Below the pieces are notes generated by a model. It was given only the letters and a program-made list of their open reading frames with translations. It made no database searches and had not been told where the DNA came from. From a virus (lineage: Duplodnaviria; Caudoviricetes): a stretch of 64,000 nt of DNA. The first letter of the stretch is position 1. Each line of letters starts with the position of its first letter. Where the stretch lies: the IMG/VR virus record IMGVR_UViG_3300022552_000005, positions 1 through 64,000 of that record, one strand, 5' to 3'. Below, one piece after another: positions 9,794 through 59,984 of the stretch. Position numbers and translations under genes: made by a program.

Positions 9794-10152
9794 TGTTTTT
9801 TAATCGTGTAATTATTGCTGGACGCGTAATTGCAAAGGAAACCCGCCAGACGAGCAACAACAATCTGGTTGTCAATTTGCGCCTGGGAGTTAAAGAGGAA
9901 AAGAATGTTCCCCTAACGCACGTCGATGTAGTTTTGTGGAGCAAGCTTGCCGAACAAGGTGACAAGAAGATTGAAAAAGATAGCGTTTTAGTCGTTGAGG
10001 GTGTTCTACGACAAGATCGGTGGGTCAACAAGGAAGGTGAAAAACGCACGAAACTTTATATTAAGGCAAACAAGTTTTGCGTACTCGATATGAATCGCGG
10101 CGGACAGGGAGAGGAAACCGTCGAATCTGAAGAGGAGAAAAAGGAGGAATAA
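9793..10152 (+). CDS. ssb: Single-stranded DNA-binding protein
   Basis: NRVIIAGRV...DVVLWSKLAE...VVEGVLRQDRWVNKEGEKRTK is a bacterial SSB OB-fold pattern; AGGAGG at 9781-9786. Confidence 0.9.
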   Translation: MFFNRVIIAGRVIAKETRQTSNNNLVVNLRLGVKEEKNVPLTHVDVVLWSKLAEQGDKKIEKDSVLVVEGVLRQDRWVNKEGEKRTKLYIKANKFCVLDMNRGGQGEETVESEEEKKEE

Positions 10153-13100
10153 TGCAGATTCCGCCACGCTGGAAAGATATTTACGGCGCAACATTCACCG
10201 AACTATTTGATTTTGAAAAATTAAACGAAAAGATCGCCCAACTCGCGCAAGAAATTAAAGACGGCAAGAGAAGAAAACCCAAGGTTCTTTTCGTTGGAGA
10301 AGCATCTTTTCTAAAGACAGGGTTTAGCACCTATTGGGACGCTGTTTTGCGTCGCCTACATAAATGGGGTAACATTAATATTGTAGAGCTGGGATCTTAC
10401 GCAGCGCCCACCGATCCACGTATTAAGAATGTGCCGTGGAAATTCTATGCAGTAATGCCCGATCCCAATGACCCCGAAGACGTGCGCGAGTATGGCAATC
10501 CCCATGGCTCACCTGATGAACAGCGCCGATATCATTTGAATCAATTCGGTAAACATAAATTCGATCCAGTTGTGGCGGCAGAAAAACCAGACATTGTTTG
10601 CACCCTCCGCGATCATTGGATGGACTCCTACATCAGCGAGTCAGTCTTCCGAGACAGGTTTCACTGGATATGGCTCCTATGTATCGATTCACAGCCCCAA
10701 CAGTGGGAATGGCTAAAGACATTTAATGGTGTTGATACTTGTTTAGCCTATTCTCACTTTGGGAAAAGGGTTGCCGAAGTTCAATCGCGCCATCCAATTG
10801 CACAAAGTTTAGGAATTAAACCTATCAACGTAGAACTTGTTATTCAACCAGCTATCGATACTAATATTTATCATCCAATGGATAAAGCATTAGTCAAACA
10901 GCGTTTCAATATTCCTCCTCAGGTGCAATTTGTTGGAATGGTGGCGCGCAACCAGAAACGCAAATTATTCCCTCGGTTAATTGAGGCATTCCGCATTTTT
11001 AAGAAGCGTAATGGTTGGGGAAGCACAAATAAAAAAATTAAAAATATTGACAACATCAAATTATTACTACATACTTCAATACGCGATGTGGGCTTTAATA
11101 TTCCGGAAGCAATACGGCGCGAAGGTTTACAAAACGAAGTATATTTTACTTATATTTGTCGTCGTTGTGGTGTTTTCGGGGTTACTCCATTTATTGGTTC
11201 GCCAGCACGTTGTCCCAATTGTGGACATATGTCATTTGATAGTCCAAATACTCAGGTTGGACTTCCGGATGATCAATTTAACTTAATTTTTAATCTAATG
11301 GACGTTTATGTTCAGATGAGCATCGCTGGAGCGGCAGAAATGCCGATTGTTAATGCCAAAGCTTGTGGTGTGCCAGTCATTGTTTCTGGCTATGCCGCCA
11401 TGTATGAGCAAGGACTTAATGGCGGCGGCATGATAGTTAAAGGTGATCTCGAAACCGAAGCAGAAACTATGCAGCGACGCTTCTGGTTCAACAGGGAGGA
11501 TTTAGTAGAAAAACTAACTAAATTATTCCGTAAACCAAATCTACTCAAAAAACTCGGAAAAGAAGCTCGCGAATGCGCCGTAAAATACTACAATTGGGAT
11601 TTAGCCGCTAAGAAATGGGAATATATTCTATTAAGCCGCAATCTCAAGCCATTATCGGAAACGTGGCAAAAACCAATTAAAACTTATATTATTCCATCTA
11701 ATCCAATTTACAAAGAAAATCTTTCTAACGAAGAGTTCATCACGCAATGCTATCAAAAAATATTAAATCGCGAGCCAGATCCTGAAGGTTATAGCCATTG
11801 GCTAAACCAATTGAGCCGTGGACGCCCACGTGAAGATATTGAAAAATTTTTCCGTCGAATTGCTGAACGCAATAATCGTGCTGCCGAATTGTTGGAAAAG
11901 GGAAAATTAAACGTTCTAAGTCCAATTGAAAAAATTAAACGGGAGTTTGATCCGGCGGATAAGTTCCGCATCCTTTACTGCATGCCACAAACAGCGGGTG
12001 ACGTATTGATTAGCACTGCTATTGTGCGCAAATTAAAAGAAAAATATCCTAATGCATCAATTTACTTTGCTACTGAAAAGCGCTATTTTGACATTCTAAA
12101 AGGTAATCCGGATATTAAGAAAGTAATTGAGTATAAAGACTTTATGCTTAATTATCGCATTCCAGAGCCTTTTGGTCCACAAAAGGGATTCGTTGATTTG
12201 TGTTTTTGTCCATTCATTGTTACGCAACGAATTCCCCATTGGATACATGGGGGCAAGGGGGAATCATTGGGTGTTACTTATGCACATTTGTGCAATCTCA
12301 CTATGACAGACGAAGAAATTAGTCAAAAAATGTATATCGCGCTTGAAAAACCCAATGTTGAACTACCAGAAACTTACATTACGTTTCATGCTAAAACAAC
12401 GCAAGATCCAAAAGATTATGAACGTTGGGATGAGGTTTTTGAACAATTACAAGGAATCACCGTTGTTCAGGTTGGTAATGCCGATGAACCACTAATTAAA
12501 TATGAAAACGTAATTGACCTGCGCGGAAAAACTACGCCACAGCAATTGGCATATATTATTAAACATGCAAAATTACACCTTGGGCTCGACTCATTCCCGG
12601 CGCATGTAGCTTCAGCCGTAGAAACGCCCTCTGTAATTCTTTACGGCGGAACATACGCCAAACAAGGCGGCATTCAGCACAATATTGCCATTGAACCAAA
12701 GGATAGGAATGGATGCGTAACGAGCTGCCATTTAATTGAATGTATTCAGAAAAAACAAGGGCGCGACAAATGTATTAATAATATTGAGCCCGATGAAGTA
12801 ATCGAAGCACTAAAAAAGATTTTAAATGTTCAATATTTTAAACCCCCGAAAGAATTGAAGGTTTCAGCATATTGTATTATTAAAGATGGCATTAAATATG
12901 GTTTTCCGTTCGAGGAATGCATTCGGGCAGCTTTGAAAATCGTTGACGAATTCGTAATGGTCGATGGTGGCTCAACAGATGGCACTTGGGAACGCCTCCA
13001 AGAACTACAAAAAGAAGAGCCTCGTTTAAAAATTTATCAGCATGAATGGGATATGGACGATCCCATGTTAATGGGCAACGAAAAAACCTACGCTAAAGAA

Positions 13101-13763
13101 AAATGCACCGGCGATTATGTTATTCAATTAGATGCCGATGAAATTTTGGTTGAGCCACATCCAGGGGCAATTAAAAAACTCATCCGGCGGAATAAAAAGG
13201 TGGTCTGTTTTGATTTGCCTGTGATAAATCTTTACGACAATGAAAAAATTCGCCTGGACGATACACTGATTAAGTGGCGTATCTATAAAAATACCGATGA
13301 CTGGGTTCACACCGCACCCGGACAATTTAGAGAATTCGATCCAGATACCATGAAAATTACCTTCGACAAAAAGAAGTGCGATTCGTGCGAACCGTGTAAT
13401 AGATATACCCTTGAGATTATTCCGCACGTTTCAGTTTTGCCGCCGAATGTATTATCAGCTCACTATGCATTAAAAGAAGCCGTCAAGAAGGGTAATGTTC
13501 CCGATGATTTATTAAAAACCTACTGCGACATTTTGCGAAATATTGTTAAACACGTTCCTCACGTCGTACATTATTCTTGGAACAATCTTGAAACTAAGAA
13601 AAAACGCGGCGAATTTTGGAGTAATACTTATCATGGACGTAAAAGCTGGACACATAATACCACACAAGACATCGAGGAAAGAATTAAAGAAAATAAAGAG
13701 TTTATTTTACCGATAGCCTTAAGTGGCTTGCGAAAGGAGGAAAATAATGGACTTTCCAGATAA
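10152..13763 (+). CDS. Multidomain glycosyltransferase: GT4-like + DUF4214-like + GT9-like + GT2-like
   Basis: GT-B/GT4 motifs (VGMVARNQKRK, FNLMDVYV, MPIVNAKACGVPVI); EEFITQCYQKILNREPDPEGYSHW (DUF4214-like); GDVLISTAIVRKLKEKYP and GLDSFPAHVASAV (GT9); VMVDGGSTDGT and QLDADE (GT2). Confidence 0.85.
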   Translation: MQIPPRWKDIYGATFTELFDFEKLNEKIAQLAQEIKDGKRRKPKVLFVGEASFLKTGFSTYWDAVLRRLHKWGNINIVELGSYAAPTDPRIKNVPWKFYAVMPDPNDPEDVREYGNPHGSPDEQRRYHLNQFGKHKFDPVVAAEKPDIVCTLRDHWMDSYISESVFRDRFHWIWLLCIDSQPQQWEWLKTFNGVDTCLAYSHFGKRVAEVQSRHPIAQSLGIKPINVELVIQPAIDTNIYHPMDKALVKQRFNIPPQVQFVGMVARNQKRKLFPRLIEAFRIFKKRNGWGSTNKKIKNIDNIKLLLHTSIRDVGFNIPEAIRREGLQNEVYFTYICRRCGVFGVTPFIGSPARCPNCGHMSFDSPNTQVGLPDDQFNLIFNLMDVYVQMSIAGAAEMPIVNAKACGVPVIVSGYAAMYEQGLNGGGMIVKGDLETEAETMQRRFWFNREDLVEKLTKLFRKPNLLKKLGKEARECAVKYYNWDLAAKKWEYILLSRNLKPLSETWQKPIKTYIIPSNPIYKENLSNEEFITQCYQKILNREPDPEGYSHWLNQLSRGRPREDIEKFFRRIAERNNRAAELLEKGKLNVLSPIEKIKREFDPADKFRILYCMPQTAGDVLISTAIVRKLKEKYPNASIYFATEKRYFDILKGNPDIKKVIEYKDFMLNYRIPEPFGPQKGFVDLCFCPFIVTQRIPHWIHGGKGESLGVTYAHLCNLTMTDEEISQKMYIALEKPNVELPETYITFHAKTTQDPKDYERWDEVFEQLQGITVVQVGNADEPLIKYENVIDLRGKTTPQQLAYIIKHAKLHLGLDSFPAHVASAVETPSVILYGGTYAKQGGIQHNIAIEPKDRNGCVTSCHLIECIQKKQGRDKCINNIEPDEVIEALKKILNVQYFKPPKELKVSAYCIIKDGIKYGFPFEECIRAALKIVDEFVMVDGGSTDGTWERLQELQKEEPRLKIYQHEWDMDDPMLMGNEKTYAKEKCTGDYVIQLDADEILVEPHPGAIKKLIRRNKKVVCFDLPVINLYDNEKIRLDDTLIKWRIYKNTDDWVHTAPGQFREFDPDTMKITFDKKKCDSCEPCNRYTLEIIPHVSVLPPNVLSAHYALKEAVKKGNVPDDLLKTYCDILRNIVKHVPHVVHYSWNNLETKKKRGEFWSNTYHGRKSWTHNTTQDIEERIKENKEFILPIALSGLRKEENNGLSR

Positions 13764-14404: not shown

Positions 14405-16117
14405 ATGAACTGTCCAATTATTGTACATTTAGCCGTTCATAACATGGCTGATTTCGTTGGCTATGCCATTGATGCTGTCGCTCCGCACGTTGATAAAATC
14501 ATTATCTTAGAGGGAGCCTGGGGAACCAGCGTAAAAGCCAATAATCTTTTCACGCCGCGTTCAACTGACGGAACTATCGAAATCCTAAAAGAAAAACAGA
14601 AACAACATGGTAATATCGAAATTCATCATCTTAGTTTGCCCACCCAATTGCAACAGCGCAGCGAATATTTCCACATTGTTAAAGATTATCCTCATTATAT
14701 GTGGCTTATTGATGCCGACGAAATTTATGACGAAATAGACATTATCAAGGTCAAAGATGCTATTATTCGTCATGACCCTAAAGAAAGTCAAGTTCTATAT
14801 TGCACATCATTAACATTCGTGAACGACTTTTATCATTACCGACCAATTGATTGGGCGCGCATTTTCTATATTGAGCATCCGGATCATGAATTTATAGCCC
14901 CAAATCATATTTTTGATAAACGCAAAAATCGCCCACTAGTTGAAAATAAAAAACCGATTGCTAATTTTTTTCATTATTCCTATGTAATTTCTCCGGAAAG
15001 ATTTAAGCAAAAAGTCGCTGACCGTATTGAGGTGCACGGCGAATTCAAATGGGAGCTTCAAGATGGAGTAATTCGTCGCGCGGGAATTAATTACTATCAT
15101 AAAACTAATTACGTCCCCCCAATTATCCGCAATCATCCGAAAGCCAAAATAAAATTACCTGACGAAATATTTAATTACAAAGCGCGCACAAAAATTGGTT
15201 TTTTAATTCATTCCGGCATTGGCAACATGATTCTTGCCACCCCTATGCTGAAAGCGTTACGCAAGCTTTATCCAGATGCAAGAATTTCCGTATTCACGTG
15301 GGAACGTTGCGCAGACATAATTAGGGGACTCGATTTCATTGATGATATTATTACACATCGATATGAGGCTTTTGTAGATTCTGTTGGTGGGTTAGATTAT
15401 TTATTAATTTCTCCGACGGCAGTAATTCCTACAGCCCGCGCCCGTTTGATTGAACGTAGCAAATCTGTTATCGAACTTCCCCCACATAACTGGGGAAAGC
15501 ACGAATCTGAATATAACATGGACTTGGTACGTATGTTAGGATATAAGGGGGAAACGCCACGTCCAAGTTGTGTCTGGGATGAACTAACCGTAACGTATGA
15601 AAACGCGGCTATCATAAGTATAAGCCATCTGGCTGAGGGTCATTGGTGGCTAAAATCCATAGAAGATGATCGCGAATGGTTGAGAGTCGTTGATTTCTTG
15701 ACATCGTGTGGTTATAACGTGATAGCATTAGGAACCAACATAGGAACATCTATACTTGATCAACATCCAAAAGTTATTAATTTATGTGGCAAAACTACCA
15801 TAACAGAAGCCGCCGCGATTATTAAAAATGCAAAACTCTTTGTGGGGTTGGACGGCGCATTAGCCCATATTGCCGCATGTTTTGAAATTCCGTCGGTTGT
15901 TGTATTTACTTTCACGAATATTATAAAAAATCTGCCATTGAATCGAAACTTACTAGTGGTGGCTAAGAATTGTCCAAAACGCACGACATGTCAACATGGA
16001 AATTGGGCAAAATGCGAGAGTAGATTCTGCCGCAGGATTAGCGCTAAAGATATTGTAAGTAAAATCCGCGAATTGCGCAATATCGATGCTGTTATTAATT
16101 GGAATTCGTCAGAGTAA
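14405..16117 (+). CDS. Fused GT2-like + GT9-like glycosyltransferase
   Basis: N-terminal STDGT and WLIDADE (GT-A DxD); C-terminal GIGNMILATPMLKALRKLYPDA and GLDGALAHIAACFEIPSV (heptosyltransferase-like GT9). Confidence 0.85.
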   Translation: MNCPIIVHLAVHNMADFVGYAIDAVAPHVDKIIILEGAWGTSVKANNLFTPRSTDGTIEILKEKQKQHGNIEIHHLSLPTQLQQRSEYFHIVKDYPHYMWLIDADEIYDEIDIIKVKDAIIRHDPKESQVLYCTSLTFVNDFYHYRPIDWARIFYIEHPDHEFIAPNHIFDKRKNRPLVENKKPIANFFHYSYVISPERFKQKVADRIEVHGEFKWELQDGVIRRAGINYYHKTNYVPPIIRNHPKAKIKLPDEIFNYKARTKIGFLIHSGIGNMILATPMLKALRKLYPDARISVFTWERCADIIRGLDFIDDIITHRYEAFVDSVGGLDYLLISPTAVIPTARARLIERSKSVIELPPHNWGKHESEYNMDLVRMLGYKGETPRPSCVWDELTVTYENAAIISISHLAEGHWWLKSIEDDREWLRVVDFLTSCGYNVIALGTNIGTSILDQHPKVINLCGKTTITEAAAIIKNAKLFVGLDGALAHIAACFEIPSVVVFTFTNIIKNLPLNRNLLVVAKNCPKRTTCQHGNWAKCESRFCRRISAKDIVSKIRELRNIDAVINWNSSE

Positions 16118-16119
16118 AA

Positions 16120-17097
16120 ATGAAAATTTTATTGATCGGCTCGTATTACAAGAATCAGTTTCACGGTGCTGAGGTTGGTATCTATAATGCTTTAAAGAAA
16201 TTAGAACATAAAGTTGACATTCTTGATTTGCAAGCTACCCAAGGAAAATTTGGCGACTCTATTGTCTATAATCAAAACCTCAACGAATTAGCCGAACACG
16301 CCGGAAAGTATGATTTTATTTTAGTTGTTGGCGCAGGTATTAACCCTGACCGTTTAACTGATAAAGTAAAGTCGCTTCTTGCCAATCATGTCACGGTTGT
16401 CTGGAATTCTGAGCCGATTAGATTAAATAACTATCGTGATCGTTTATTGTTACAGAAACATTATTATAATTTCTTTTTTACTTTTGATGAAGGTGAAATT
16501 CCTCTATATTTGAAAAACGAAATGCGCCCGTGTTATTTTTTGCCGCAAGCGTTTAATCCAGATTGGTATCGCCCAATAGATATTGAAAATAAAGAATTTA
16601 TTTGTTTTGTGGGATCGGTTGGTGGGAAATGGGTAAACCGACACTTTTTACTTCAGCGAATTAAAAAGATTACGCGCATTTATACGACAATGACATTCAA
16701 CGCCGAACATGTAAATAAAATATACAATATGCATTGGTGCGGCATCAATCTAGGGCTTTACCATGAAGAGCTTGGTCCGCCACCGTATTTAAGTTCATAT
16801 GGATATCAACAACGCATTTTTGAATTAATCGGTGCTGGCTGTATTCCAATTACTAACCTTCCCGCGGATTTTGATCGAACGCCTGAACAACGACGCATGT
16901 TTACAAATAAAAAGAATATAATTTTTTATACAAATGATTCATTAGAGGCAATATTAAAGTATTATCGCGACAACCAAGACAAACTTCAGGAAATCCGAGA
17001 AAGCGTCCTTCAAATTCGCGAAAATCATACTTATGAAGCACGTATGAAAACGATGGTTAAATTGCTTGAGAAAGGAAGGTTTTCTCATGTCCAGTGA
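16120..17097 (+). CDS. CgeB/DUF3880-like glycosyltransferase (Glyco_trans_1_2)
   Basis: FFFTFD, LPQAFNPDWYRP, ICFVGS, RIFELIGAG, RENHTYEARM are typical of CgeB-like GT-B proteins. ATG 16120. Confidence 0.75.
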   Translation: MKILLIGSYYKNQFHGAEVGIYNALKKLEHKVDILDLQATQGKFGDSIVYNQNLNELAEHAGKYDFILVVGAGINPDRLTDKVKSLLANHVTVVWNSEPIRLNNYRDRLLLQKHYYNFFFTFDEGEIPLYLKNEMRPCYFLPQAFNPDWYRPIDIENKEFICFVGSVGGKWVNRHFLLQRIKKITRIYTTMTFNAEHVNKIYNMHWCGINLGLYHEELGPPPYLSSYGYQQRIFELIGAGCIPITNLPADFDRTPEQRRMFTNKKNIIFYTNDSLEAILKYYRDNQDKLQEIRESVLQIRENHTYEARMKTMVKLLEKGRFSHVQ

Positions 17098-18898: not shown

Positions 18899-19849
18899 AT
18901 GGAAACTGCCACTCTCATAACCGGCGGATTGGGGTTTATCGGATTAAATCTTCTCAAATTTATCAAGGCTGACCGAATTATTGTCGTTGATAATTTCAAA
19001 TGTGCTGGAAGTATACGGCACATTAATAAACACATTTTATTTCTTGAAGGAGATGTGACTGATAAAAAATTCGTGCGGATGTTGTCTATTTACCCAATTA
19101 ATAAGATTTATCACCTGGCAAGCATCGCATCACCGAAATTCTATAAAAAATTTCCCATTGATACAATCATGACTAACGTGATTGGTACGTTAAATATATG
19201 CGAATTAGCTTTGACCTGCAAGGCGCGCCTTTTGTTAAGTAGTACGAGCGAAATCTATGGACAACCAGAGGTCCATCCACAGCCAGAAAGCTATTTTGGG
19301 CATCGTAATACTGTCGGTGATCGGTCTTGCTATGATTGTTCTAAAGCCGTAGCAGAAACAATAGTTTACGAATATACTAAAAAAGGTCTAAATGCTGTTA
19401 TTGCTCGCATTTTTAATACTTATGGACCTTATATGCGCCCTGATGATGGGCGTGTGATTAGCGAATTTATTTGTCGCGCAATAATAGGGAAACCGCTTAT
19501 TATCCATAACGGCGGCAACCAAACGCGCAGCTTTTGTTATGTTGATGATCTTTGCAAAGGACTAATCTTACTTATGGAAAAGGGCAAAGATTTAGTTTAT
19601 AATGTCGGTAACGACCAAGCGGAAATAACCATCAATCAACTGGCGGATTTAATTGAGGCAAGGTTAAATAAAAAATTGGAGCGCAAATATATCGACGTAC
19701 AAGATAACGATCCTGTGGTTCGCCGTCCAGATTTGACAAAAATCAGACAATTGGGCTATAAGCCACAAGTTGAAATTGAGCAAGGACTTAGGAAAACTAT
19801 TAAATATTTCAGGAAGCAATGGACTGGAAAAACATTCAAGGAATATTAA
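18899..19849 (+). CDS. UDP-glucuronate decarboxylase / UDP-xylose synthase-like NAD-dependent SDR
   Basis: TGGLGFIG; IYHLASIASP..Y...PIDT; STSEIYG.PEVHPQPESY.G; YDCSK (YxxxK); RIFNTYGPYMRPDDGRVIS; QTRSFCYVDDL, closely following the UXS pattern. Confidence 0.85.
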   Translation: METATLITGGLGFIGLNLLKFIKADRIIVVDNFKCAGSIRHINKHILFLEGDVTDKKFVRMLSIYPINKIYHLASIASPKFYKKFPIDTIMTNVIGTLNICELALTCKARLLLSSTSEIYGQPEVHPQPESYFGHRNTVGDRSCYDCSKAVAETIVYEYTKKGLNAVIARIFNTYGPYMRPDDGRVISEFICRAIIGKPLIIHNGGNQTRSFCYVDDLCKGLILLMEKGKDLVYNVGNDQAEITINQLADLIEARLNKKLERKYIDVQDNDPVVRRPDLTKIRQLGYKPQVEIEQGLRKTIKYFRKQWTGKTFKEY

Positions 19850-34136: not shown

Positions 34137-34573
34137 TTACATGCGCCGGTCATTACATCAATGCGTAATACCTCTTTAATTTTATCATTCTTCTGTAGAG
34201 CTAAGTGAACATAATTTACATCACCGCAATATAAACGATGCTTGCTCACTAAGTATTCTTGCTGCCCTTCAAGATTGATATGTTCAGTAATAATAACCCG
34301 TTCGCCAACCTTAATATTAAATGGATTCTTTATTTTGAAACGTTTTTTAGGATTATGTAGAGCATAACCCTCAGCTTCATTTTCCGAAATCAATGTACCA
34401 ATACATTCTAACATCCCAGTCGTCGCCGTATAATAAACGTAGGGTTTCCATCCGTCCAAAATTTTGATATCATATGCAACTACTTTTTGCAATAACGGAA
34501 TCCACAATTTTACTACAAGATAATCCTTACCTTCACGCTTTTCAATGCGTTGTTCTATATTCTTGATACTCAT
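34127..34573 (-). CDS. Hypothetical protein (148 aa), possible fibre-assembly chaperone
   Basis: Coupled by overlaps to both neighbours; charged, no SG, unlike the flanking structural proteins. Confidence 0.55.
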   Translation of the reverse strand: MSIKNIEQRIEKREGKDYLVVKLWIPLLQKVVAYDIKILDGWKPYVYYTATTGMLECIGTLISENEAEGYALHNPKKRFKIKNPFNIKVGERVIITEHINLEGQQEYLVSKHRLYCGDVNYVHLALQKNDKIKEVLRIDVMTGACKWL

Positions 34574-44800: not shown

Positions 44801-47800
44801 ATATGCTAACTGAGTTCCGATGTCTTTAATCGCACCAACTGTTTGATCGCCAGTTTCAGTCACGCCAGTAAATTCAATTGTAAATCCTTCACGAGTAATA
44901 TCCTCAATTAAAGCGCCAAGATTAATTAAATCACGATTCACTGGACCATAATTTTTCTCTACGAAATCGACAACAACTTGCAGCCGTTCTTTCGCTAAGT
45001 CAGACAACAACTGCCGGAAAAATTGGGTACGTTCGGTAACTCGATTAAAAATAGTATTCAAATCCTGCATTTGCTTACTGATTTGTACAAGCGATTGGAA
45101 TGACTTATCCAAATTACGTGCTAATTCCCCAGCACCAGCCGTTAAAATAAGCTTTACATTAACTTTGCGCGGTAATGCTAAACGTGATATAAACTCTTCA
45201 CCCAGTTTTCCACTAGCAAAAGTCTGTACTAAACGCGCATACCCTTTATTAACTAGTCCAATCCGTAATGCTTCGACAGAACGGGCTTTTGCTAAAACAG
45301 CCTGCGCATCAACAAGTTCCGCCGCCGTTCTTTCTTCTTCGGTAGCTAATTTCTCACGTGCTTTTAATGCTTCACTAGTACGATTAATAACCGCCGCTAC
45401 AGTAGATAATGCCGCCCCAACTGCCGCAGCAGCAGGACCTAACGGAGCTAGAAACGCAGCACCTTTAGCTGCCGCTCCGCCAAAAGATAATAAATATCCA
45501 CCTGTTTGCTCTAATGTGTTACCTGTTTTTACAATTTCATCACCAAAAGTTCCTATAACATTTCCAATAGATTCCAGGGCAGTCATTATTACAAGAGCAC
45601 GACCAACTTCTTTTGCAAAATCTCTTGCGCCACCAGCCGCTTTTTGCATTGAGCGCGCCATCTGTTGCATGGCTACATTTGATGCGCGTACTTGTCGAAC
45701 GCCTGGTCCAACACCACCCATTGCAACGGCTGGAGCGACGCCCATTCTCTGTTTAGTAAGCGCGTCAGCAAGCATACCGGTTTGTTTAAGGGCGGCATTT
45801 TGTTGTTGAATAGCAATAGTACTTTGTTCAACTGCGCGTGTAACCTGATTAAATCCATCAACTAACGCGCGTATTTGCGTTTCACTGCCGGTAATAAATG
45901 CTCTGAAATGACGTGCTGCTGTAATGATTTGAGGAATAAATACTTTACCAAAAATAACTAAAATTGTCCGTTTAAGTAATTGTAATACGCTAGCAGCATT
46001 CGTTACACCTTTACCAATAGACTCGGCGATCATCTCGCCGATAGTTTTTACCTTTTCAACTTCACTAGTATCAACTTCAAGAGCTAACTTCTTAGTCAAA
46101 AATTTATCCCAAGCTTTTCCAAGATCAACAATATGAACTAACAATGAACTCGCGCCAAGAATTAACTTACGATAAACATCAACCGCACCAATTTCTTTTA
46201 ATGTAGTTACTAATTTAACAATAGCATTAACTAATTGACGATGGGCATAACCAACTGTTTGAGCCTCAATAGCTTCCTTACGTAATGCCGATGTAGAAGC
46301 CTCGGTAGCAATAGCTAATAACCGATGATATTTATCGCTACGACTTAACAATGCGGACAGCTCGGTAAAACGGCGCTTACCACCAGCCAAACGTGCCATA
46401 GCTGCCCGCTGAGTTTCATCCATATATTGCCACGCCTGAGCCATTAATTCAATAATTTCAGACGTGGTCTTATATTCGCGAGAGGCTGCCTCAGTATCAC
46501 CTGCCAAACGTAAAGTATTTTTAGCAAGTTTAATAATTTCCTCTCGATTCTGCGCAATAGAAACCAAAATAGTCTTCATGGCTGTACCGACGCGAGTAGC
46601 AGCCAACTGAGTTGTCCCAGCCACAGTTGCAATCATCGCGCCGAGCTCTTCGATGCTCACACCAAATGCAGAAGCAGTAGCGCCTGACCGAATAAAGCCC
46701 TTCGCCAAGTCTTCTACGGTAACAGCGCTATTATCCGCCAAATCAGAGAACATCGCGACATACTTTGCCGCTTTTTGGAAAGTAATGCCGAAAGCATTAA
46801 CCGTAGTAATAAGTAGCTTGGAACCAGTAACAGCATCAACAGTTGAAATATTCAAAAGCTGCATAGTTGCCCGTGTGGCAGCCGCAATTTCATCAATGTT
46901 CTTTAAACCTTGGCGCGCGAAATTAGTTGCTGCATCTGAAACTTCGGCAAACGTTCGTCCGGTTTGAATTGCCATATCAACAAGACGATCAGTAAGTTGT
47001 TCGGTATCAACACCGGGAAGAACCTTTGCTAAACTCTTAGCTGTATCATCTAATAATCTTAATCCATCAACCGCTTGTCGAATAGCTTCAAGCATCTTAA
47101 ATAAGCCAGCAGTATAAACAAAGAATGCTGAAAAACGTTTAGCAATCTGACCGATTTTCGCACCAAATTCAGCCGCGCTCATTCCGGCTTCACTATAAAT
47201 TTTATTTAAATTATCTTTATAGCGCGCCAACTCAACATCGCGCGGACTAAGAACTAAATTGAGTCGCCGTTGTGTAGGAATGGCTGCTAATTGTGCTCGT
47301 ACTTCTTTTAATCGCTCAACAGCTCGTCTAATAGGTTTTGCAGGAAGCGCATGAGAAAATTGTTTACGTAATGCTGCCGCATCCCTAGCTACTAACCCTA
47401 ATTCGCGACGCAGCTGATCGGCAATTCGTTTGGAAATTGTTAAATCTGCCCGTAATTTAATAGGTGGTTGAGAATCCATAAATTTCTGCAAGTTCTTATG
47501 AGCTTTACGCAATTCCTTATGAGGAAACTCAACTGGAACCTTAGCTACCAGTTTTAAATCACTAAATTGTTTTTTAGAAATAATGGGCTTAACGGGAATA
47601 CGCAGCCTATAACCCGCCGCAGCAGTTGCAATATCTTTATTTATGGCACTTAATTGTGCCCTAATATCACCACGTTTAAGTTGGATCTGCGTGCTGATAA
47701 TATACTTTTTAGAAAAAAGTTTCTGCATGCTGGCACGCCAAGAGGACATCAAAGTTTTAATATCCGCGCGCATTTGTTGAATACCTTCGCGCAAACCAAT

Positions 47801-48100
47801 AGAAAGTTGCTTTTTAAGATAGTCTGGCAAAAAATCCAAATTTATATTTTGCGGACCATAAGTTATACTAACACGTTTAATCGTATCACTAAGACGTTTA
47901 TAAATCTGACTTAATTCTTTATTTGGTAATACTTGAACGGCAGTTAATCGTAACTCTCCAAGGCGAGCTTTTAATTTTTTAAGACTTACATTAGTAATCG
48001 CATAGTTGAGCGCACGACGTACCTTGTCTATCAGCGCTTTAGTCTTAACATCGCGCTCTGTAAAACGAACGCCTAGTTTAATTTCATACTGCGCCGCCAT
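41825..48100 (-). CDS. Tail tape measure protein (2091 aa)
   Basis: TP901-type core (FARQG, LADNSAVTVEDLAKGFIRSGATASAFGVSIEELGAMIA, VGTAMKTIL, LAGGKRRFTELSALL); long Ala/Leu/Glu/Lys coiled-coil; follows tube and chaperone genes. Confidence 0.92.
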   Translation of the reverse strand: MAAQYEIKLGVRFTERDVKTKALIDKVRRALNYAITNVSLKKLKARLGELRLTAVQVLPNKELSQIYKRLSDTIKRVSITYGPQNINLDFLPDYLKKQLSIGLREGIQQMRADIKTLMSSWRASMQKLFSKKYIISTQIQLKRGDIRAQLSAINKDIATAAAGYRLRIPVKPIISKKQFSDLKLVAKVPVEFPHKELRKAHKNLQKFMDSQPPIKLRADLTISKRIADQLRRELGLVARDAAALRKQFSHALPAKPIRRAVERLKEVRAQLAAIPTQRRLNLVLSPRDVELARYKDNLNKIYSEAGMSAAEFGAKIGQIAKRFSAFFVYTAGLFKMLEAIRQAVDGLRLLDDTAKSLAKVLPGVDTEQLTDRLVDMAIQTGRTFAEVSDAATNFARQGLKNIDEIAAATRATMQLLNISTVDAVTGSKLLITTVNAFGITFQKAAKYVAMFSDLADNSAVTVEDLAKGFIRSGATASAFGVSIEELGAMIATVAGTTQLAATRVGTAMKTILVSIAQNREEIIKLAKNTLRLAGDTEAASREYKTTSEIIELMAQAWQYMDETQRAAMARLAGGKRRFTELSALLSRSDKYHRLLAIATEASTSALRKEAIEAQTVGYAHRQLVNAIVKLVTTLKEIGAVDVYRKLILGASSLLVHIVDLGKAWDKFLTKKLALEVDTSEVEKVKTIGEMIAESIGKGVTNAASVLQLLKRTILVIFGKVFIPQIITAARHFRAFITGSETQIRALVDGFNQVTRAVEQSTIAIQQQNAALKQTGMLADALTKQRMGVAPAVAMGGVGPGVRQVRASNVAMQQMARSMQKAAGGARDFAKEVGRALVIMTALESIGNVIGTFGDEIVKTGNTLEQTGGYLLSFGGAAAKGAAFLAPLGPAAAAVGAALSTVAAVINRTSEALKAREKLATEEERTAAELVDAQAVLAKARSVEALRIGLVNKGYARLVQTFASGKLGEEFISRLALPRKVNVKLILTAGAGELARNLDKSFQSLVQISKQMQDLNTIFNRVTERTQFFRQLLSDLAKERLQVVVDFVEKNYGPVNRDLINLGALIEDITREGFTIEFTGVTETGDQTVGAIKDIGTQLAYFNDLLKFSTTQTIDFNSALEGLQSASNRAFTNFRNMVTATYGLRDAFVELPGEIDNITSVGIKALEDGLNSLQREFQETVAYMRDQATGIEEAKEALEEFAKAHPEFAKEIVKAIESSVTKIKLLDEAEKLSGEVARRAEEMKQRALEQTARRWRDMYGQLFKLLETAAIKARTTTEQFIIEVNRLQSALMLRDIELGIQNLDAVIRAQDDLAQATAVTFAKIAKIDADFAEKRAKLIDFQKEKIEELKQKLGEAATPYVQAFELQLKATVALEFKKSVEQQINALYDLIIKNIQRAKKAEQDRRQAERAIEQERKRLTREIESINIRKLGDLSSKINTTADKIAGLRNSLLDLDKTIAKLQAQIAWTPPPRLAKKVARLPELETKAKQLREEIALVRAFEEHNQRIREINDATINLNYENQKYLIGIKRQLGIYRTWQDQIDAITASYDAAVNGIAASEEAIYRIRADLNQQIINVLQDQFNSIKRFGEGLYTANYSRLAKIALAMQYINRDLSEVPLFLRDTVVELLKLQRGPGIEIEIAKAGLERIGIDTTALERLNEEIIRKSAEVADLNKKAFDAQQRTANSTGMMVNLLEQELSQTEKQIQEAQQAREKIDELRQAAFNQEQTLEQQLSEALERRKLLQAQLNQQLSFQANLQNQFMQLYNVLQEGSASAKFQAGKIAENTVGVTAVQSKMDEVTLAVLKSAETVAENKKIIEQSNAIIADSKKTVEELHDRIESLKQALIEKQAELISLQNTLIGTNQDITNTIADGTNVLLKSISTSVDFIRQNLPGWISKLITAINNVRIRIYRVAGTQTRAGGLSPAELFSLKMAAEREKREMPRGSELVVANTSELILTKDQAKKIFGQLNLPDKLQNTMAQVVNAPIRKEIIKEKTIETTDFRSLINRVEQLIEKINNKVKEKPEQKINISLDGRREIHISGINELSSEIERIWQRNMKQAVSRAEFTALKSTLLNILQRLKEMGVDGV

Positions 48101-50211: not shown

Positions 50212-51426
50212 TTACGGGTTCTTAGCCTGCCTGGTGGCTGTGTGAGTTACGGTAAAGGCATTGCTGTTAGTATATTCAAAAGTGCATTCAACAGAATCGC
50301 CACCCGTGGTGAAATCACCCAAACTAACGCTGCTGAGCTTATTCTTGGTGCCAAGATCAATGGTCAAGCCGCCCAGCGTGCGTAGAATAATCTGCTGGTT
50401 GGTCAAATTGCTCTGATTGGCAAGAGCATTAACCTTATCGCCCTCAGACGTAATAACCGTGAAAGTGGTAGTTACAGTAAGTGGGAAACTGACCGCCCAG
50501 TAGTATGGATCACGACTACCGAGCTCGTAAATCTCTTCACGCCCGATATCAACGCTGACCTCAATGCTCTGAATGTGGTCATCGCTGCTAATATCGGTCG
50601 GAAGAACTGAATTCGCCCGGTCAAAGTCCTCACTCCGCTGAACGCCCGAACCAACAACAGTAGCGTCATAAGCCTCGGAAGTCGGGAAATAACCAGACGG
50701 TACCACTGAAGAAGTTGCGCTTACCCACAGCTTGTTATTACCAACGAGCGTCACAGACTCACGAGCGTTCTCGGTAGCAGAAAAGCTATAAGAAACAGCG
50801 CTCACATAAAGACCACTACAAATCACCACAGAATCCGGCGTTCCACGAGCAGAATCTTGGGTATCCGGATAGATATTAACTGCAACATCAACTTTATAAT
50901 CGGCAGTTTTACCTTTCAGATCAGTATAGCGCGGATCGCCCACCATCAGCCAAAGTGGCATAGTTCCGTCAAGTACGCGCTCCATCGTAACTTCAATATT
51001 AGGAAGGGTCTCAATGTTTTCGTATGAGCCGAGCTGACCAATCTGGAAAATATCCTCGGTATTGAAAGCGGTACTAATCGAGCAGGTCTGCATGCCCATA
51101 GGAACGTACCAACCGTTTAGATCAGCCGCCGCTCCACTGGCATGCGTCGCCGCCGTAGTCCCGCGATCACCGCGAGTTAGCCCGCCCACTGTGTACTGAT
51201 CAAGAAAAGTAGTAAAATAAATATACTCATCGCCAACCCGGAACTGATGAGGCACCGGCCAAACACCACTGACTACCTCGTTAAAACGAATTTCACCGTC
51301 GGTAGCACTAATACCGGACGCCAGCGTAAGTTGCGGATACCAATTTTCAATGACCGTGGTGGGGCGCTTTTTAGTGTCCTTAATGGACACCTGCGCGGTC
51401 GCGTATGTAATTCGATTATTAGCCAT
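50212..51426 (-). CDS. Major tail tube protein with inserted accessory domain
   Basis: Strong SD GGAGGTGAT, high-expression codon bias and own terminator; MANNRITYA...EDIFQIGQLGSYENIE.LPNIEVTMERVLDG, EEIYELGSRDPYY..VSFP..VT; position between terminator protein and chaperones/TMP. Confidence 0.8.
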   Translation of the reverse strand: MANNRITYATAQVSIKDTKKRPTTVIENWYPQLTLASGISATDGEIRFNEVVSGVWPVPHQFRVGDEYIYFTTFLDQYTVGGLTRGDRGTTAATHASGAAADLNGWYVPMGMQTCSISTAFNTEDIFQIGQLGSYENIETLPNIEVTMERVLDGTMPLWLMVGDPRYTDLKGKTADYKVDVAVNIYPDTQDSARGTPDSVVICSGLYVSAVSYSFSATENARESVTLVGNNKLWVSATSSVVPSGYFPTSEAYDATVVGSGVQRSEDFDRANSVLPTDISSDDHIQSIEVSVDIGREEIYELGSRDPYYWAVSFPLTVTTTFTVITSEGDKVNALANQSNLTNQQIILRTLGGLTIDLGTKNKLSSVSLGDFTTGGDSVECTFEYTNSNAFTVTHTATRQAKNP

Positions 51427-54122: not shown

Positions 54123-56699
54123 TTACCTTATAAACACTCCCTTATAAAAACCACTGCTAGAAACAAAAACACGTAATGTGTTTTCATCAATAGCTTCTAA
54201 AGAATCAAAACTAACACTCTTATCAGTTTCACTATTATATAACTGCACCATTACATATTTGTGTCCAAGATTGTGTGTTACATCAGTATAATATAACGAG
54301 CCAGATGGCTGCCAACTATTAAGGGTTGCCTCAACAACATTTGCTGCATTTTGAGCTACGGAATAAACAGCGCTATCTAATATCGACAACCCAGAAGCTA
54401 AACCAATTCCATCATTCAAATAATTATGCGATAAATAAGTTGGCGTATAGTGCCTACTTACTTCACCAGATGCCGTCAAACCAACGTAGGTCCGGAGCTG
54501 ACTAATCTTACTCGCATTAACAATAGCACGTCGCCGAGCTTCATTTCCAATCTGATAAGCAAGATCGCTACGACTTAAGAAAAGATCATCGAGAGACCAG
54601 GCATAAATACGAGAATAACCATCGTTATGACGATAACATAAATAAATATTCTTATTATTAAGTATCATTGTGTTGCGATAATCACTAGCTGTATCTGCTG
54701 GCGGTGTAGTATTATATGTATAAAAATCAGACATTGTATTTACATTGAAAGTATAAAAACCACAAGTAGAGGTGTTAATCTTATGCATCATCACAAAAGC
54801 TCGTTCATTCTCAATCAACATGTTTTGTAATGGATAAGTTCCCCATGCATAATAAAGCTGCGTTTTGTGTCCAGTATTCAAATCATAACACCAAATATAA
54901 TCACTATGCTGATAATACAATGTATCATTATAAACCGTAAGAGGCCAGACCCAAGTATCATTAATTGTAATTGTTTCAACGCGCGAACCATCCCACCGAG
55001 AAACTAGCATACTACCACGCAAACCATATAAATAACTACCGTCTACACAAATCTTAAAACCAACATCAGAAGTAGCAAAATTATCAGCAACCTTTTCAAC
55101 TGTTAACTGTCCACTCGGCGAATTCTCATTAATAATCCATAATGTACCATTATTATCCAATCCACACCAATAACCATTCCAATCGAGCATGCGAACGAAA
55201 TAATCTCCGCCGAGAGGCAGTTCGCTAATATCTGTCCAATCTAAATCATAACGGCAGATATAAGCCTTTGTCCCATCACTACTTCTAATACAAGCATATA
55301 GCGAATTATTTACTGATGCGAGAGATGTAACTGAACCACTAGCAGCTGACGGCGAACGAATAACATCAAAAACAGGATCGCCAACCCCGCGCTTTGTTGG
55401 TAGGGTCTTCCCAGATAAATCAAGACGATAAACAACACCTGACTGATCTGCTCCAGCAAATAGCTCATTAGCATGTTCCGTTAAACAGCTAATTTGTCCA
55501 GCATAATCAATTTCTGCAACCAACGTTCCAGCATCAAAGCCAGGCGCACGCGAATTATCATTAATTGTACTAAAGTAAAATGCATTCTTGCTTAATGATT
55601 CATCCTCAATATAAGCTTTCACCAAAAAGTTATCTAACGACCAAATTTTAATCACATTACCATTAAAAACACGAGCAACATATTTTCCATTTGACCGCGC
55701 GTAACCATCCAACCATTCACTAAATGGATAAATATAACCAACATCTTCAAACTGGTGAGTATAAGCATTAAACTTATAATTTTTATAATATATAGATCTA
55801 CCAATCTTATGTACAACAAAAGAGGAAAGATTAGTTTTCTTCGATTCTACATGTCCATTATATTTAACAACAGTAATAACAGAATGTTCGATACCACTGT
55901 CGGGATCACGTAATTTATTCCAATAATAGAAATCACCATTATGCAGCCAGTTTTCTGCCCAATAGCTGGTAAGATCGGTAGCATTTACAAAACCACTTGG
56001 CGCAGTTGTAACTAGTGTATCGCCATACTGGAAAATATCCTGAAATAGAACTCTGATAACATTATTTCTACCAAAATATAATTTATTATCACCCGGATCA
56101 ATCGGACGCGATGGACGAATTCCACCACCGGCGTTGGTAAATGACCAATTTATACCATCATGACTATATGCATCTGAACGTCCGCCATCGTGACAAATTG
56201 CACCAATCATTGCATCGGTGGCAATAAGCATTTCGGGCTTACTATAAATATCTAATTCGCAAGCTTTTGTCCATCCGCTACCAGAGACATATTTAGCTAC
56301 ACCACCATTACCATTAGGAATTCCCCAACCCGATCCATAAAACAAGACATACAAATCACCGCGAAAGCGACAGGCAACATTAAACTTATTACCAGCCTCG
56401 ACACTAGCAGCTGCGCCAGCCCCGGGTAATCCAATGCTTTTAATTCCATATTCTTCAGCATCACCCAAATATTCGGTTTCACCGCTATCAATATTAACTA
56501 AATAAACATAACGCCAACCACTAATAGCAATAATCTCATTGTCAAACAAGCTAATTTCCCAATCGCCTTCAGGTAAAGTTATTTCACGAACACCGCTTAC
56601 CGAAAATGGAGCAATATTCACAACATCAGATAATGTTGCCAGACCATGTTCATCATACTGTGGGCGTCGTTCAAAATCATATGAACCACGTATATACAT
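54123..56699 (-). CDS. Virion fibre/appendage protein with beta-propeller repeats and C-terminal HNLG-type domain
   Basis: Blades FDNEII, FRGDLYV, HANELFAG, VNNSLYA, YNDTLYY; C-terminal module shared with 57774..59984; 16 SG. Confidence 0.55.
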   Translation of the reverse strand: MYIRGSYDFERRPQYDEHGLATLSDVVNIAPFSVSGVREITLPEGDWEISLFDNEIIAISGWRYVYLVNIDSGETEYLGDAEEYGIKSIGLPGAGAAASVEAGNKFNVACRFRGDLYVLFYGSGWGIPNGNGGVAKYVSGSGWTKACELDIYSKPEMLIATDAMIGAICHDGGRSDAYSHDGINWSFTNAGGGIRPSRPIDPGDNKLYFGRNNVIRVLFQDIFQYGDTLVTTAPSGFVNATDLTSYWAENWLHNGDFYYWNKLRDPDSGIEHSVITVVKYNGHVESKKTNLSSFVVHKIGRSIYYKNYKFNAYTHQFEDVGYIYPFSEWLDGYARSNGKYVARVFNGNVIKIWSLDNFLVKAYIEDESLSKNAFYFSTINDNSRAPGFDAGTLVAEIDYAGQISCLTEHANELFAGADQSGVVYRLDLSGKTLPTKRGVGDPVFDVIRSPSAASGSVTSLASVNNSLYACIRSSDGTKAYICRYDLDWTDISELPLGGDYFVRMLDWNGYWCGLDNNGTLWIINENSPSGQLTVEKVADNFATSDVGFKICVDGSYLYGLRGSMLVSRWDGSRVETITINDTWVWPLTVYNDTLYYQHSDYIWCYDLNTGHKTQLYYAWGTYPLQNMLIENERAFVMMHKINTSTCGFYTFNVNTMSDFYTYNTTPPADTASDYRNTMILNNKNIYLCYRHNDGYSRIYAWSLDDLFLSRSDLAYQIGNEARRRAIVNASKISQLRTYVGLTASGEVSRHYTPTYLSHNYLNDGIGLASGLSILDSAVYSVAQNAANVVEATLNSWQPSGSLYYTDVTHNLGHKYVMVQLYNSETDKSVSFDSLEAIDENTLRVFVSSSGFYKGVFIR

Positions 56700-57773: not shown

Positions 57774-59984
57774 TTACCTCACAACAATAACCCCTAATGC
57801 CCCGCTACTACTGGCGAAAACCCGCACAGTATTTTTATCTAATAGAACATGATGATCAATTCCTACACTATTATATGTAGTTGGATCGTAGCATTGGACA
57901 ACTACTAACCGATCACCGAAATTATGATGAACATCAGCATAATATAATGAGCCAGATGGAGTCCAACTAGTTACTACCTCAGTATACTTAGTCGCCTGCC
58001 CACCAAAAACACCCGAAACGCCATAAAATACACCATCTGAAGTGATATACCAATTATTATTTGTTCCGCAAAGATCGATATCGACGCCACTTACATTTAC
58101 AACACAACCAGCTGACCGACGAATAAATGAAGCGGCTTGCTCAACTGAACTATCAACATAAATTAAAGCATCAGCAGATGATTTATTTTCAAGTCCTAAA
58201 TCAAGTTCTTGAGCATATATATTATCAACATAAAGATCATTAAATTTAGCCCCACTACTACCAATATTATAAGTCAAAGAAGCAGCAGGAATTAAATTCT
58301 CATCCTTTTTATAAGTATTTGAATCAATGGCGTTTATATCTAATTCTACTTCAGCAATTTTAGCATCTAGCTTAGAAATACCAGAAGCTAAATTATCACC
58401 TGTTTGAACATAATTATTAGATGTATATGTCGGACTTGAGTCATCGTCACTACCAATAAATGTATGAATATTTTTAATATAATCTAATTTCCGCGCAATC
58501 GAAGCTGTTGCCGTATCATCTTCGCCGATTGCTGATAATTGCCCACGATACCAGAAATAACTACCATCGCCACAAATAATACAAAGACGATCTTTATAAG
58601 GGGCAAGCGTAACAATACTTTTACCACTTGGTAATGTGCAAATCAATTTCGTCGAACGTCCATCAAATGCCCAAACCTCATTACCATTAAAAGTATAAAT
58701 CAACTTACCCTGATAAATACACGGTTGTTGCCCAGCACAATCAGAAATTATTTTAACAGCACGCTCTTTTTGATCAATTAACCATAAACCATTTCCACAA
58801 CCATAAGCTCTGCCTTTATAAACAATTCCGTAAGTGCAATGATGTCCAATAGCATAAAAATAACCCTCTTTTACACCATCATACCAACTTACATAATCCT
58901 CATTAGGACCCCAAACATACAATGTATTACCAAGCGAGGTACAACCGAAATTCCAACCCCAGGTACCACCTTGAGCATGAACACGACAAAGAATTCCCCA
59001 GCTATTACCATCATATTTAAAAATTGGTTGTTTGGATCCAGCCGAAGCCCCACCAACAACCGAACAAATTAAATCGCCATTATATTCGGCTAAAGACGTT
59101 GCCCCCCAAGCTCCTCCCGTACCTGATGGTTGACCAATATATTCCAAATTATTTCCATCATAGAGAAATACCCACGTATAATTCCAAGGCGAAATTGAGG
59201 CAATGGCTAACTTACCACGCCAAACCGTTAAACCACCAATCTTAGTTCCAGAACCAGGTGAACACTCTAATTGCCAACCGCTCGGAGTAATACTATAAAC
59301 ATTATCAGAATCACGTGAACCAACAAAAACTTTCCCATTGTAAACGCAAGAATAACACAACCAATCGCCCGGAGACTCGGGTAACTGTCCGCCCGAAACA
59401 ACCGGCATTTCACCATAAGTATCAATATCGACAGTGCTTAAATTAACAGCCAACTCTCCATCTGGGCTAATATGTAACGTACCGCTTCCTACTTGAATAC
59501 CATACAAGAAATTACCAGATTGCGCATAAATAACAGCAAAACGATGGTCCAAGCTGCCGATATCATATAAACCGGATGGAATTAGATCTTCATCTTTACG
59601 ATAATAAAGACTTAAATCAACGCCAGAAACTTGAGCATCAACATAACCTTTTGTCGCTAAATCATAAATATGTTGTGGGATAACACCGCTAATAGTTCCG
59701 GTAAAACCACGAGTACCATCAACTAAAATATATTGTGGATGGTCATCATCGGTAAGCCCAGTTAAAAGTCCATGATCAGTAACGCCACCACCAACTCCGG
59801 ATAACCCAGAAACATTAACTAATAGACGCCCAGTTCCGTCTACAGCAAGCGGATAACCAGTCTCACCCCAACAAAAAACAAAGCCGCTCGCTTGTGCGTC
59901 GGCATTTACTAATAGCTGTCCTTTATCATTAACTTTTATTGTGCGCCCTTCCGGTCCATAACTGAAAATGTATTCGGCAGACAT
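57774..59984 (-). CDS. Virion fibre/appendage protein with beta-propeller and HNLG-type domain (736 aa)
   Basis: Start ATG 59984 with AGGAG SD; DHGLLTGLTDDDHPQY and DLATKGYVD fibre-type motifs; blades YNGKVFVG, WRGKLAI, YNGDLIC, YKGRAYG, YQGKLIY, YKDRLCI; 19 SG. Confidence 0.6.
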   Translation of the reverse strand: MSAEYIFSYGPEGRTIKVNDKGQLLVNADAQASGFVFCWGETGYPLAVDGTGRLLVNVSGLSGVGGGVTDHGLLTGLTDDDHPQYILVDGTRGFTGTISGVIPQHIYDLATKGYVDAQVSGVDLSLYYRKDEDLIPSGLYDIGSLDHRFAVIYAQSGNFLYGIQVGSGTLHISPDGELAVNLSTVDIDTYGEMPVVSGGQLPESPGDWLCYSCVYNGKVFVGSRDSDNVYSITPSGWQLECSPGSGTKIGGLTVWRGKLAIASISPWNYTWVFLYDGNNLEYIGQPSGTGGAWGATSLAEYNGDLICSVVGGASAGSKQPIFKYDGNSWGILCRVHAQGGTWGWNFGCTSLGNTLYVWGPNEDYVSWYDGVKEGYFYAIGHHCTYGIVYKGRAYGCGNGLWLIDQKERAVKIISDCAGQQPCIYQGKLIYTFNGNEVWAFDGRSTKLICTLPSGKSIVTLAPYKDRLCIICGDGSYFWYRGQLSAIGEDDTATASIARKLDYIKNIHTFIGSDDDSSPTYTSNNYVQTGDNLASGISKLDAKIAEVELDINAIDSNTYKKDENLIPAASLTYNIGSSGAKFNDLYVDNIYAQELDLGLENKSSADALIYVDSSVEQAASFIRRSAGCVVNVSGVDIDLCGTNNNWYITSDGVFYGVSGVFGGQATKYTEVVTSWTPSGSLYYADVHHNFGDRLVVVQCYDPTTYNSVGIDHHVLLDKNTVRVFASSSGALGVIVVR

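Follow-up and report, generated by a model that had tools for sequence, protein, structure and literature searches.

What leads a phage to place serine before glycine, over and over, in outer virion proteins of unrelated fold? The question is raised by a 64,000-nucleotide stretch of phage DNA (hereafter the window) that makes up the first 64 kb of IMG/VR record IMGVR_UViG_3300022552_000005, a 79.8-kb genome (label G000) with a CheckV completeness of 42%. A first-pass annotation, made from the sequence alone, had counted Ser-Gly (SG) dipeptides by hand and read them as sequons for a phage-encoded, possibly xylose-primed, O-glycosylation system. Here we find that the SG excess is robust, Ser-specific, confined to outer virion proteins and strongly selected. 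O-glycosylation is a tentative explanation for it, and the proposed link to xylose is not supported.

Two gene blocks occupy the window. The plus strand carries a replication, glycosyltransferase (GT) and methyltransferase block with DnaE, a small open reading frame (ORF), a multi-GT protein of 1203 aa, a protein with a GT9 domain, a CgeB-like GT, a UDP-glucuronate decarboxylase (UXS) and four DNA methyltransferases. The minus strand carries the structural module, which runs from the major capsid protein (MCP) through a 2091-aa tape measure to the baseplate and fibre genes.

Ser-Gly excess on outer virion proteins

Expected SG counts were derived from within-protein shuffles, and observed/expected ratios (O/E) and z-scores were computed per protein or pooled over the structural module. 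Pooled, the module holds 179 SG against 76 expected (z 12.4), placing SG first among all 400 dipeptides; PS ranks second among the outliers, owing to PSG. GS, NG, DG and AG occur about as often as expected and TG slightly less often, so that SG alone is in excess among the dipeptides the first-pass annotation had proposed to compare. In the rest of the G000 proteome SG has a z of 0.4.

Ten proteins reach z-scores of 4-6 against their own shuffles, and all SG-rich genes lie on the minus strand. The largest counts belong to an 831-aa fibre/baseplate protein with LamG_3 and PKD-like domains by Pfam (27917..30412; 21 SG versus 7.1 expected, z 5.9) and its 746-aa paralog (31896..34136; 21 versus 6.3, z 6.3). 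SG density is highest in a 229-aa protein (34570..35259; 11 versus 2.4, z 6.2), where 11 of the 20 serines sit in SG, six of them as PSG; it shares a C-terminal domain with a 230-aa protein (35262..35954; 7 versus 1.8, z 4.2) and a 186-aa protein (39944..40504; 6 versus 2.0, z 3.2). Two further baseplate/fibre proteins, of 742 aa (37716..39944; 14 versus 4.3, z 5.1) and 589 aa (35954..37723; 8 versus 3.8, z 2.4), lie among them, together with a BNR-like protein of 495 aa that matches BNR_2 weakly (30412..31899; 9 versus 4.8, z 2.1). Directly downstream of the tape measure is a 434-aa Dit-like protein (40518..41822; 9 versus 2.7, z 4.1), and at the end of the tail module a 212-aa virion protein (22249..22887; 8 versus 1.8, z 4.9). 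Closer to the MCP gene are a 404-aa tail-tube candidate (50212..51426; 6 versus 2.9, z 2.0), an 858-aa head-proximal decoration/fibre protein (54123..56699; 16 versus 6.9, z 3.8) and a 763-aa protein adjoining the MCP (57774..60065; 19 versus 8.4, z 4.1).

These counts reproduce all the hand counts, for the 831-, 746-, 858-, 742-, 229-, 495-, 434-, 212-, 230- and 186-aa proteins, the protein at 57774..60065 and the tail tube, and the contrast proteins chosen in the first-pass annotation are likewise SG-poor: 0 SG in the MCP (60105..61124, minus strand; 1.2 expected), 2 in DnaE, 2 in the 1203-aa GT protein, and 4 each in the tape measure (41825..48100, minus strand; 5.4 expected; its ortholog has PF10145) and an 1101-aa hub-like protein (24603..27908, minus strand; 5.2 expected). 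No enrichment was found in the MCP, the tape measure, the hub or a 579-aa protein. The hub serves as an internal negative control, as its Ser and Gly content is similar to that of the SG-rich proteins and its orthologs likewise lack SG enrichment.

Several simple causes were considered. Composition is ruled out by the within-protein shuffles and by the hub. A DNA-level motif or codon artefact is ruled out as well: SG is encoded with both Ser codon families (AGY and TCN) and all four Gly codons, and the bias therefore lies at the protein level. Paralogy accounts for part of the counts, yet the excess crosses at least seven unrelated protein families. A generic property of tail proteins is ruled out by the T4 baseplate and tail, the T5 tail and regions of phage G, none of which has a comparable excess.

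The dipeptide also has a characteristic context, usually hydrophobic-x-[P/A/V]-S-G-[V/I/L/Y/W]. V, I or P stands at -3, A or (6-fold) P at -1, and V, I, Y, L or W after the Gly, followed by W, Y or F. Charged residues (D, E, K, R) are scarce at -3, at -1 and at +1 after the Gly, whereas P/A/V/I and V/I/L/Y/W are enriched.

Selection acts on the serine

To gauge constraint we compared G000 with G001, a 150.9-kb relative that CheckV scores as 100% complete. Across orthologs of 41-70% identity, 65 of 90 SG sites are kept in place, among them 7 of 8 in the 212-aa protein and 12 of 14 in the 742-aa protein, whose ortholog is only 43% identical. Serine is conserved at 73% of SG positions versus 33% of other Ser positions (odds ratio 5.5, p 1.4e-10), whereas in 28 non-enriched ortholog pairs the values are 55% and 43%, a difference that is not significant. 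Residues other than Ser show no gain in conservation before Gly (pooled 0.51 versus 0.51; N 0.38 versus 0.41; D 0.48 versus 0.52), ruling out a generic conservation of pre-Gly positions.

Codon histories point the same way. Conserved SG serines retain an identical codon at just 26-42% of sites, and switches between the AGY and TCN families occur at 19 of 144 conserved SG serines versus 63 of 177 other conserved serines (p 5e-6). Since such switches are rare, non-Ser intermediates are evidently not tolerated.

The excess across an uncultured clade

The window belongs to a very large clade, wholly uncultured, of long-tailed aquatic phages. Its MCP family spans more than 568 contigs in IMG/VR and has only 24% identity to the MCP of Bacillus phage G; a PHROGs search of the window proteins returned almost no matches, and no cultured relatives were found in a phage collection searched with the GT4 module and the tail tube. 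The 'Moraphage' paper (PMC12619734) deals with another lineage, one with PolB and contractile tails. Metagenome-assembled genome bins that contain relatives mostly belong to Bacteroidota, a weak hint as to the host.

Eleven clade genomes were analysed (G000, G001, G003, G004, G005, G006, G007, G009, G011, G012 and G020), and in nine of them SG ranks first among the 400 dipeptides of the structural module. G001, G003 and G020 show the same module-restricted excess as G000, with the same exceptions, and in G003, G020, G012, G011, G009, G006 and G005 SG ranks first in the module and is at expectation elsewhere. Module O/E is highest in G000 (2.36), G001 (2.25), G020 (1.92) and G003 (1.73), intermediate in G009 (1.69), G011 (1.62), G012 (1.61), G006 (1.60) and G005 (1.53), and weakest in G004 (1.36) and G007 (1.22). 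In distant relatives, the giant fibre proteins carry SG in the same hydrophobic context; self-BLAST detected no internal repeats in them and SG spacing is aperiodic, ruling out tandem repeats as the cause.

Between subclades, the excess falls mostly at different positions in each lineage. The tail-tube candidate provides an example: its orthologs across the clade hold 3 to 11 SG, and in a comparison of 11 versus 5 SG at 66% identity the extra SG align to TG, EG or GG. Across 138 representatives of the Dit-like family, at no more than 50% mutual identity, SG has an O/E of 1.85 (GS 1.02, TG 1.14, NG 1.07, DG 1.45), and the sites are spread over 255 columns of a gappy alignment, none with a majority. 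An excess made up of ancient fixed positions only is thus true inside the subclade of G000 and fails across subclades and across the Dit-like family, where lineage-specific positions fit continuing selection for the motif itself.

Turn geometry and structure

As a check on plain turn chemistry, we compared the residues that precede glycine. Ser precedes 24% of Gly residues in SG-rich proteins, versus 8% in T4 and 11% in T5, while N (6.4%) and D (7.4%) precede Gly as often as in the T4 and T5 controls. As these shares are unchanged, SG has been added to N-G and D-G and does not replace them, ruling out a replacement driven by deamidation or charge avoidance; T-G alone is depleted among the pre-Gly pairs. 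Together, these results confirm that the SG excess is robust and that composition, DNA motifs, paralogy, repeats, generic turns and N/D replacement do not explain it.

For the 434-aa Dit-like protein, an AlphaFold2 model based on 70 homologs reached a pLDDT (predicted local distance difference test) of 91, and the modelled fold weakly matches those of baseplate and tail-tip proteins, SPP1 Dit among them; the model of the 229-aa protein was of low confidence (pLDDT 37). Of the nine SG in the Dit-like model, two are strand-final residues, two lie in tight hairpins, two in pre-strand loops, one just after a strand, one in a long loop and one in a helix. When 373 SG of the family were projected on the model, strand interiors held 2% of them versus 39% of other serines. 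With hydrophobic residues at -3 and -1, the serine would face the solvent side, opposite them.

Such geometry raises the possibility that SG is a structural habit of the lineage, in which S-G ends beta-strands or makes tight turns or bulges, the Ser hydroxyl acts as a cap, and the GTs serve another purpose. The placement of SG at strand ends, hairpins and loops, its near absence inside strands and its hydrophobic, strand-like context are all what this explanation would lead one to see. A habit of this kind should also show in the tails of T4 and T5 and in the hub protein of the phage itself, and does not. It should admit D, N or T, yet NG and DG keep their usual share, TG is under-represented and Ser is alone in gaining conservation before Gly. 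Nor does it readily accommodate the suppressed codon-family switching, with no intermediate residue tolerated, or an excess that re-forms at different positions in each lineage across at least seven unrelated folds. We regard a structural habit as the main rival to a modification motif and a serious one, though we give it decidedly less than even weight.

Glycosyltransferases of the clade

The first-pass annotation had described about six GT domains in the window. Pfam supports five: a GT4-like domain, two GT9 domains and a CgeB-like domain stood, and GT2 proved to be present once, not twice. Three of these, together with DUF4214, form the 1203-aa protein (10152..13763, plus strand), in which a GT4-like module with a Zn ribbon is followed by DUF4214, GT9 and GT2. 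A 570-aa protein (14405..16117, plus strand) ends in the second GT9 domain, of heptosyltransferase fold, and is followed by a 332-aa CgeB-like GT (16099..17097, plus strand; Glyco_trans_1_2 and DUF3880). The GT9 domains match PF01075 with E-values of 5.5e-13 and 7.4e-14 and are best matched by lipopolysaccharide (LPS) heptosyltransferase models; the C-terminal GT2 domain has GmaR as its best PDB match (PDB 22ao, E 5e-9), including a DxD-type motif. The decarboxylase-like enzyme (18899..19849, plus strand) is, as the first-pass annotation supposed, a genuine UXS (E 4.7e-77 to human UXS1).

The SG excess is also seen in genomes that lack the cassette. GT9, GT2, DUF4214, the CgeB-like GT and UXS, including the 570-aa and 332-aa proteins, are confined to the subclade of G000, G001, G003-type genomes and G020, with UXS orthologs among the clade genomes only in G001, G003 and G020. 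G012, G009, G006, G005 and G011 lack the UXS-GT9-GT2-CgeB-like set, yet SG still ranks first in each (O/E 1.5-1.7); GT9 is absent from G012, G009, G006, G005 and G004, all of which keep the excess. A specific link between SG and the GT9/GT2 cassette is therefore not supported. The same holds for xylose: UXS is restricted to one subclade, a search of G000, G001, G003 and G020 for GT14 (PF02485) found none while positive controls registered matches, and the SG flanks are hydrophobic, not acidic.

The relatives each encode two to six GT genes, including further GT1- or GT2-family members, together with nucleotide-sugar enzymes. The only GT kept clade-wide is the N-terminal GT4 module of the 1203-aa protein (10152-11651), whose homologs in other clade genomes are stand-alone proteins of ~550 aa, always located after DnaE and an SSB-like gene. 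This module falls in virus-specific GT1/GT4 clusters; among solved structures, generic retaining GT4 enzymes come nearest to it. Directly downstream of the GT4 core are ORFs of ~350-380 aa of the GT1/GT4 family, clear in G009 (92031-94125) and weak in G007 (129799-130905) and G011 (119378-120511), which suggests that a pair or trio of GTs may be conserved at the core. In G020, the ortholog of the GT megaprotein (L150, 43757-48460, minus strand) is a 1567-aa ORF in which ~360 extra residues split the match near residue 80; this insert in the GT4 module could be an intein or a homing endonuclease.

The GTs could also have targets other than virion proteins. If the GT/UXS cassette modified phage DNA bases or the host envelope, its SG-rich neighbours would be coincidental. 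LPS-related phage GTs, some transferring heptose, glycosylate 5-hydroxymethylcytosine in DNA (Pyle et al., bioRxiv 10.1101/2023.12.21.572611), and in G000 four DNA methyltransferases (two N6_N4 at 17469-18092 and 18040-18894, two D12 N6-adenine at 19862-20626 and 20623-21471) are interleaved with the cassette; the constant position of the GT4 core after DnaE and SSB fits as well. These methyltransferases, however, are of N6/N4 types and are absent from the contiguous, otherwise syntenic cassette of a G003-type genome (L147), and therefore look like insertions in G000. The complete G001 has a single C5-methyltransferase (PF00145), ~60 kb from the cassette, and no ThyA-type hydroxymethylase (PF00303) was found in it or in G000, G011 and G004; a search for TET (PF12851) gave zero matches, as did its positive controls. 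The case for DNA or the envelope as target is weakened, and we consider it unlikely.

What might read the motif

Collectively, the pattern is lineage-specific, Ser-specific, spread across folds, limited to the outer virion, and both conserved and re-created, and so looks like a motif read by a phage-encoded factor. Such a factor would read S-G at a solvent-facing strand end or tight turn, and S-G would be kept and repeatedly re-created on outer virion proteins for that reason. The first-pass observation that SG pairs crowd the tail, fibre and decoration proteins is upheld. We tentatively propose, at somewhat short of even confidence, that SG is a Ser-specific modification motif whose likeliest modification is O-glycosylation, the leading candidate because these genomes are rich in soluble GTs. 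The factor would then most likely be a soluble GT acting in the cytoplasm, ahead of assembly or while it proceeds, to O-glycosylate the serine. The motif, its specificity, distribution and selection and the enzyme inventory are observed; modification of the serine, its nature as a sugar and the enzyme responsible are inferred from them.

As candidate writer we put forward the GT4-family enzyme at the N-terminus of the 1203-aa protein, the sole clade-wide candidate. The GT9, GmaR-like GT2 and CgeB-like domains and UXS would extend or diversify the glycan in the subclade of G000. A full clade-wide code of this kind, with Ser-specific O-glycosylation of S-G at strand ends, about a hundred sites per virion, a GT4 writer and subclade add-ons (GT9, GT2, CgeB-like, UXS and Gmd), is a more demanding proposal, and we advance it with correspondingly greater reserve.

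Several observations weigh against glycosylation. In the Dit-like model, seven of nine SG sit at strand ends or in hairpin or pre-strand turns, places that x-Gly dipeptides generally favour. Within the subclade, the excess (~61) equals the number of shared sites (65), the unshared sites (25) matching chance expectation (~29), and among 14 sequences of the 229-aa family, at 44-65% identity, most SG vary little or not at all. Invariant SG and shared sites are tighter than a loose glycan shield would call for and are compatible with a structural role, and both lend support to the structural habit discussed above. The enzymes offer further difficulties. G004 and G007, which possess the GT4 core and more GTs than the other genomes, show the weakest SG excess; GTs occur in all 11 genomes, which leaves no GT-free control among them; and, since genomes with the full cassette group together as a single clade and G004 is sister to G007, the patterns of gene content amount to two or three evolutionary events. 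For the comparison of SG excess with GT content proposed in the first-pass annotation, this leaves GTs in every genome and an excess that persists without the cassette. The conserved DnaE-SSB-GT4 arrangement within the replication module could, finally, point to DNA or another target.

A reader of another kind is also conceivable: phosphorylation, acylation, ADP-ribosylation, cross-linking, or a non-enzymatic partner such as an assembly chaperone or a component of the host surface. The lineage-specific, cross-fold, Ser-specific evidence does not itself identify the reader, and many ORFs in the clade genomes carry no annotation. Among the ORFs scanned (the GT cassette, the surroundings of GT4 and the structural module, annotation being non-exhaustive) none was a kinase, an acyltransferase or an ADP-ribosyltransferase; GTs and enzymes of sugar-nucleotide metabolism, by contrast, abound, and one of the GTs is found throughout the clade. 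We consider such a reader improbable.

Either way, the SG signal is large and reproducible. If O-glycosylation is its cause, bacteriophages would have their first described system of protein glycosylation guided by a sequon, one that covers tails and fibres in place of capsid C-termini and extends through hundreds of environmental genomes. It would bear on the shielding and stability of the adsorption apparatus, on passage through host capsules and exopolysaccharide and on the recognition of virion proteins, and its writer would be a compact soluble enzyme, specific for protein serines within a core motif of two residues, that could serve glycoengineering. If the cause is purely structural, SG would be an unusually strong, lineage-specific design rule for beta-proteins that current turn statistics do not predict.

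Other features of the window and its relatives

Tape-measure genes are longer in relatives than in the window, encoding 3300-5391 residues versus 2091; long examples lie at 75495-91670 in G011 (L134-L135), 52171-62478 in G009, 73129-83040 in G012 and 48797-58999 in G005. Tape measures of this length imply that clade tails, predicted to be non-contractile, would be extraordinarily long.

DnaE is one ORF of ~1100 aa in G000 and G001, and is split into two ORFs (~620 and ~540 aa) with a ~230-aa ORF between them, beside the GT4 core, in the distant relatives G004, G005, G006, G007 and G011 (for example L137/L136, and G004 103117-107454). In the gap between DnaE and the GT megaprotein, the window has a 120-aa ORF (9790-10152) whose position is kept across the clade and which is annotated as SSB (PF00436) in a G003-type genome. 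A peptide deformylase gene lies within the GT cassette, and in the G003-type genome (L147) a radical-SAM gene and a dCMP deaminase come after UXS; the coordinates concerned are 17066-17500 in the window and 8031-8468 and 10952-12246 in L147.

Comparison with known systems

The nearest phage precedent is the O-glycosylation of mycobacteriophage virions by phage GTs (Freeman et al. 2023, Cell Host Microbe, as cited in PMC12619734). In the account given there, phage-encoded soluble GTs decorate the phage's own structural proteins with a surface glycan coat, as would occur in the cytoplasm under the reading proposed here; its glycans are described as C-terminal, on the subunits of the capsid and the tail tube. 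Here, by contrast, the MCP has no SG, and ~100 putative sites are internal and dispersed over baseplate, fibre, Dit-like and decoration proteins.

Another possible parallel comes from the bacterial autotransporter heptosyltransferases TibC and Aah (BAHT), cytoplasmic GT-B enzymes of GT9 fold that hyperglycosylate many serines in short inter-strand loops of a beta-rich surface protein (PMC4358343). The window phage has two GT9 domains, and its SG sites mostly lie at strand ends and turns in the one confident model, a placement that x-Gly dipeptides favour in general but that recalls the name of the corresponding profile, TIGR04414, 'autotransporter strand-loop-strand O-heptosyltransferase'. The phage GT9, however, scores 31 bits against this model's 200-bit cut-off and is closer to LPS heptosyltransferases, and TibC in the PDB matches a GT9 domain with an E-value of 0.06. 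GT9 is, moreover, missing from most clade members with an SG excess, and the substrates are not autotransporters.

In animal proteoglycan cores, GT14 xylosyltransferases xylosylate Ser-Gly using UDP-xylose from UXS, and the flanks are acidic. The Ser-Gly acceptor and a subclade UXS that closely matches human UXS1 are shared with that system; the absence of GT14, hydrophobic flanks depleted of acidic and basic residues, and the lack of UXS in most SG-rich relatives set the phages apart from it. GmaR, which adds O-GlcNAc to flagellin in Listeria, is a cytoplasmic GT directed at Ser/Thr of a surface filament protein and is the closest solved structure to the phage C-terminal GT2 domain. That likeness covers ~100 residues of the catalytic core, in a phage domain that is subclade-specific and has no acceptor motif in common with GmaR.

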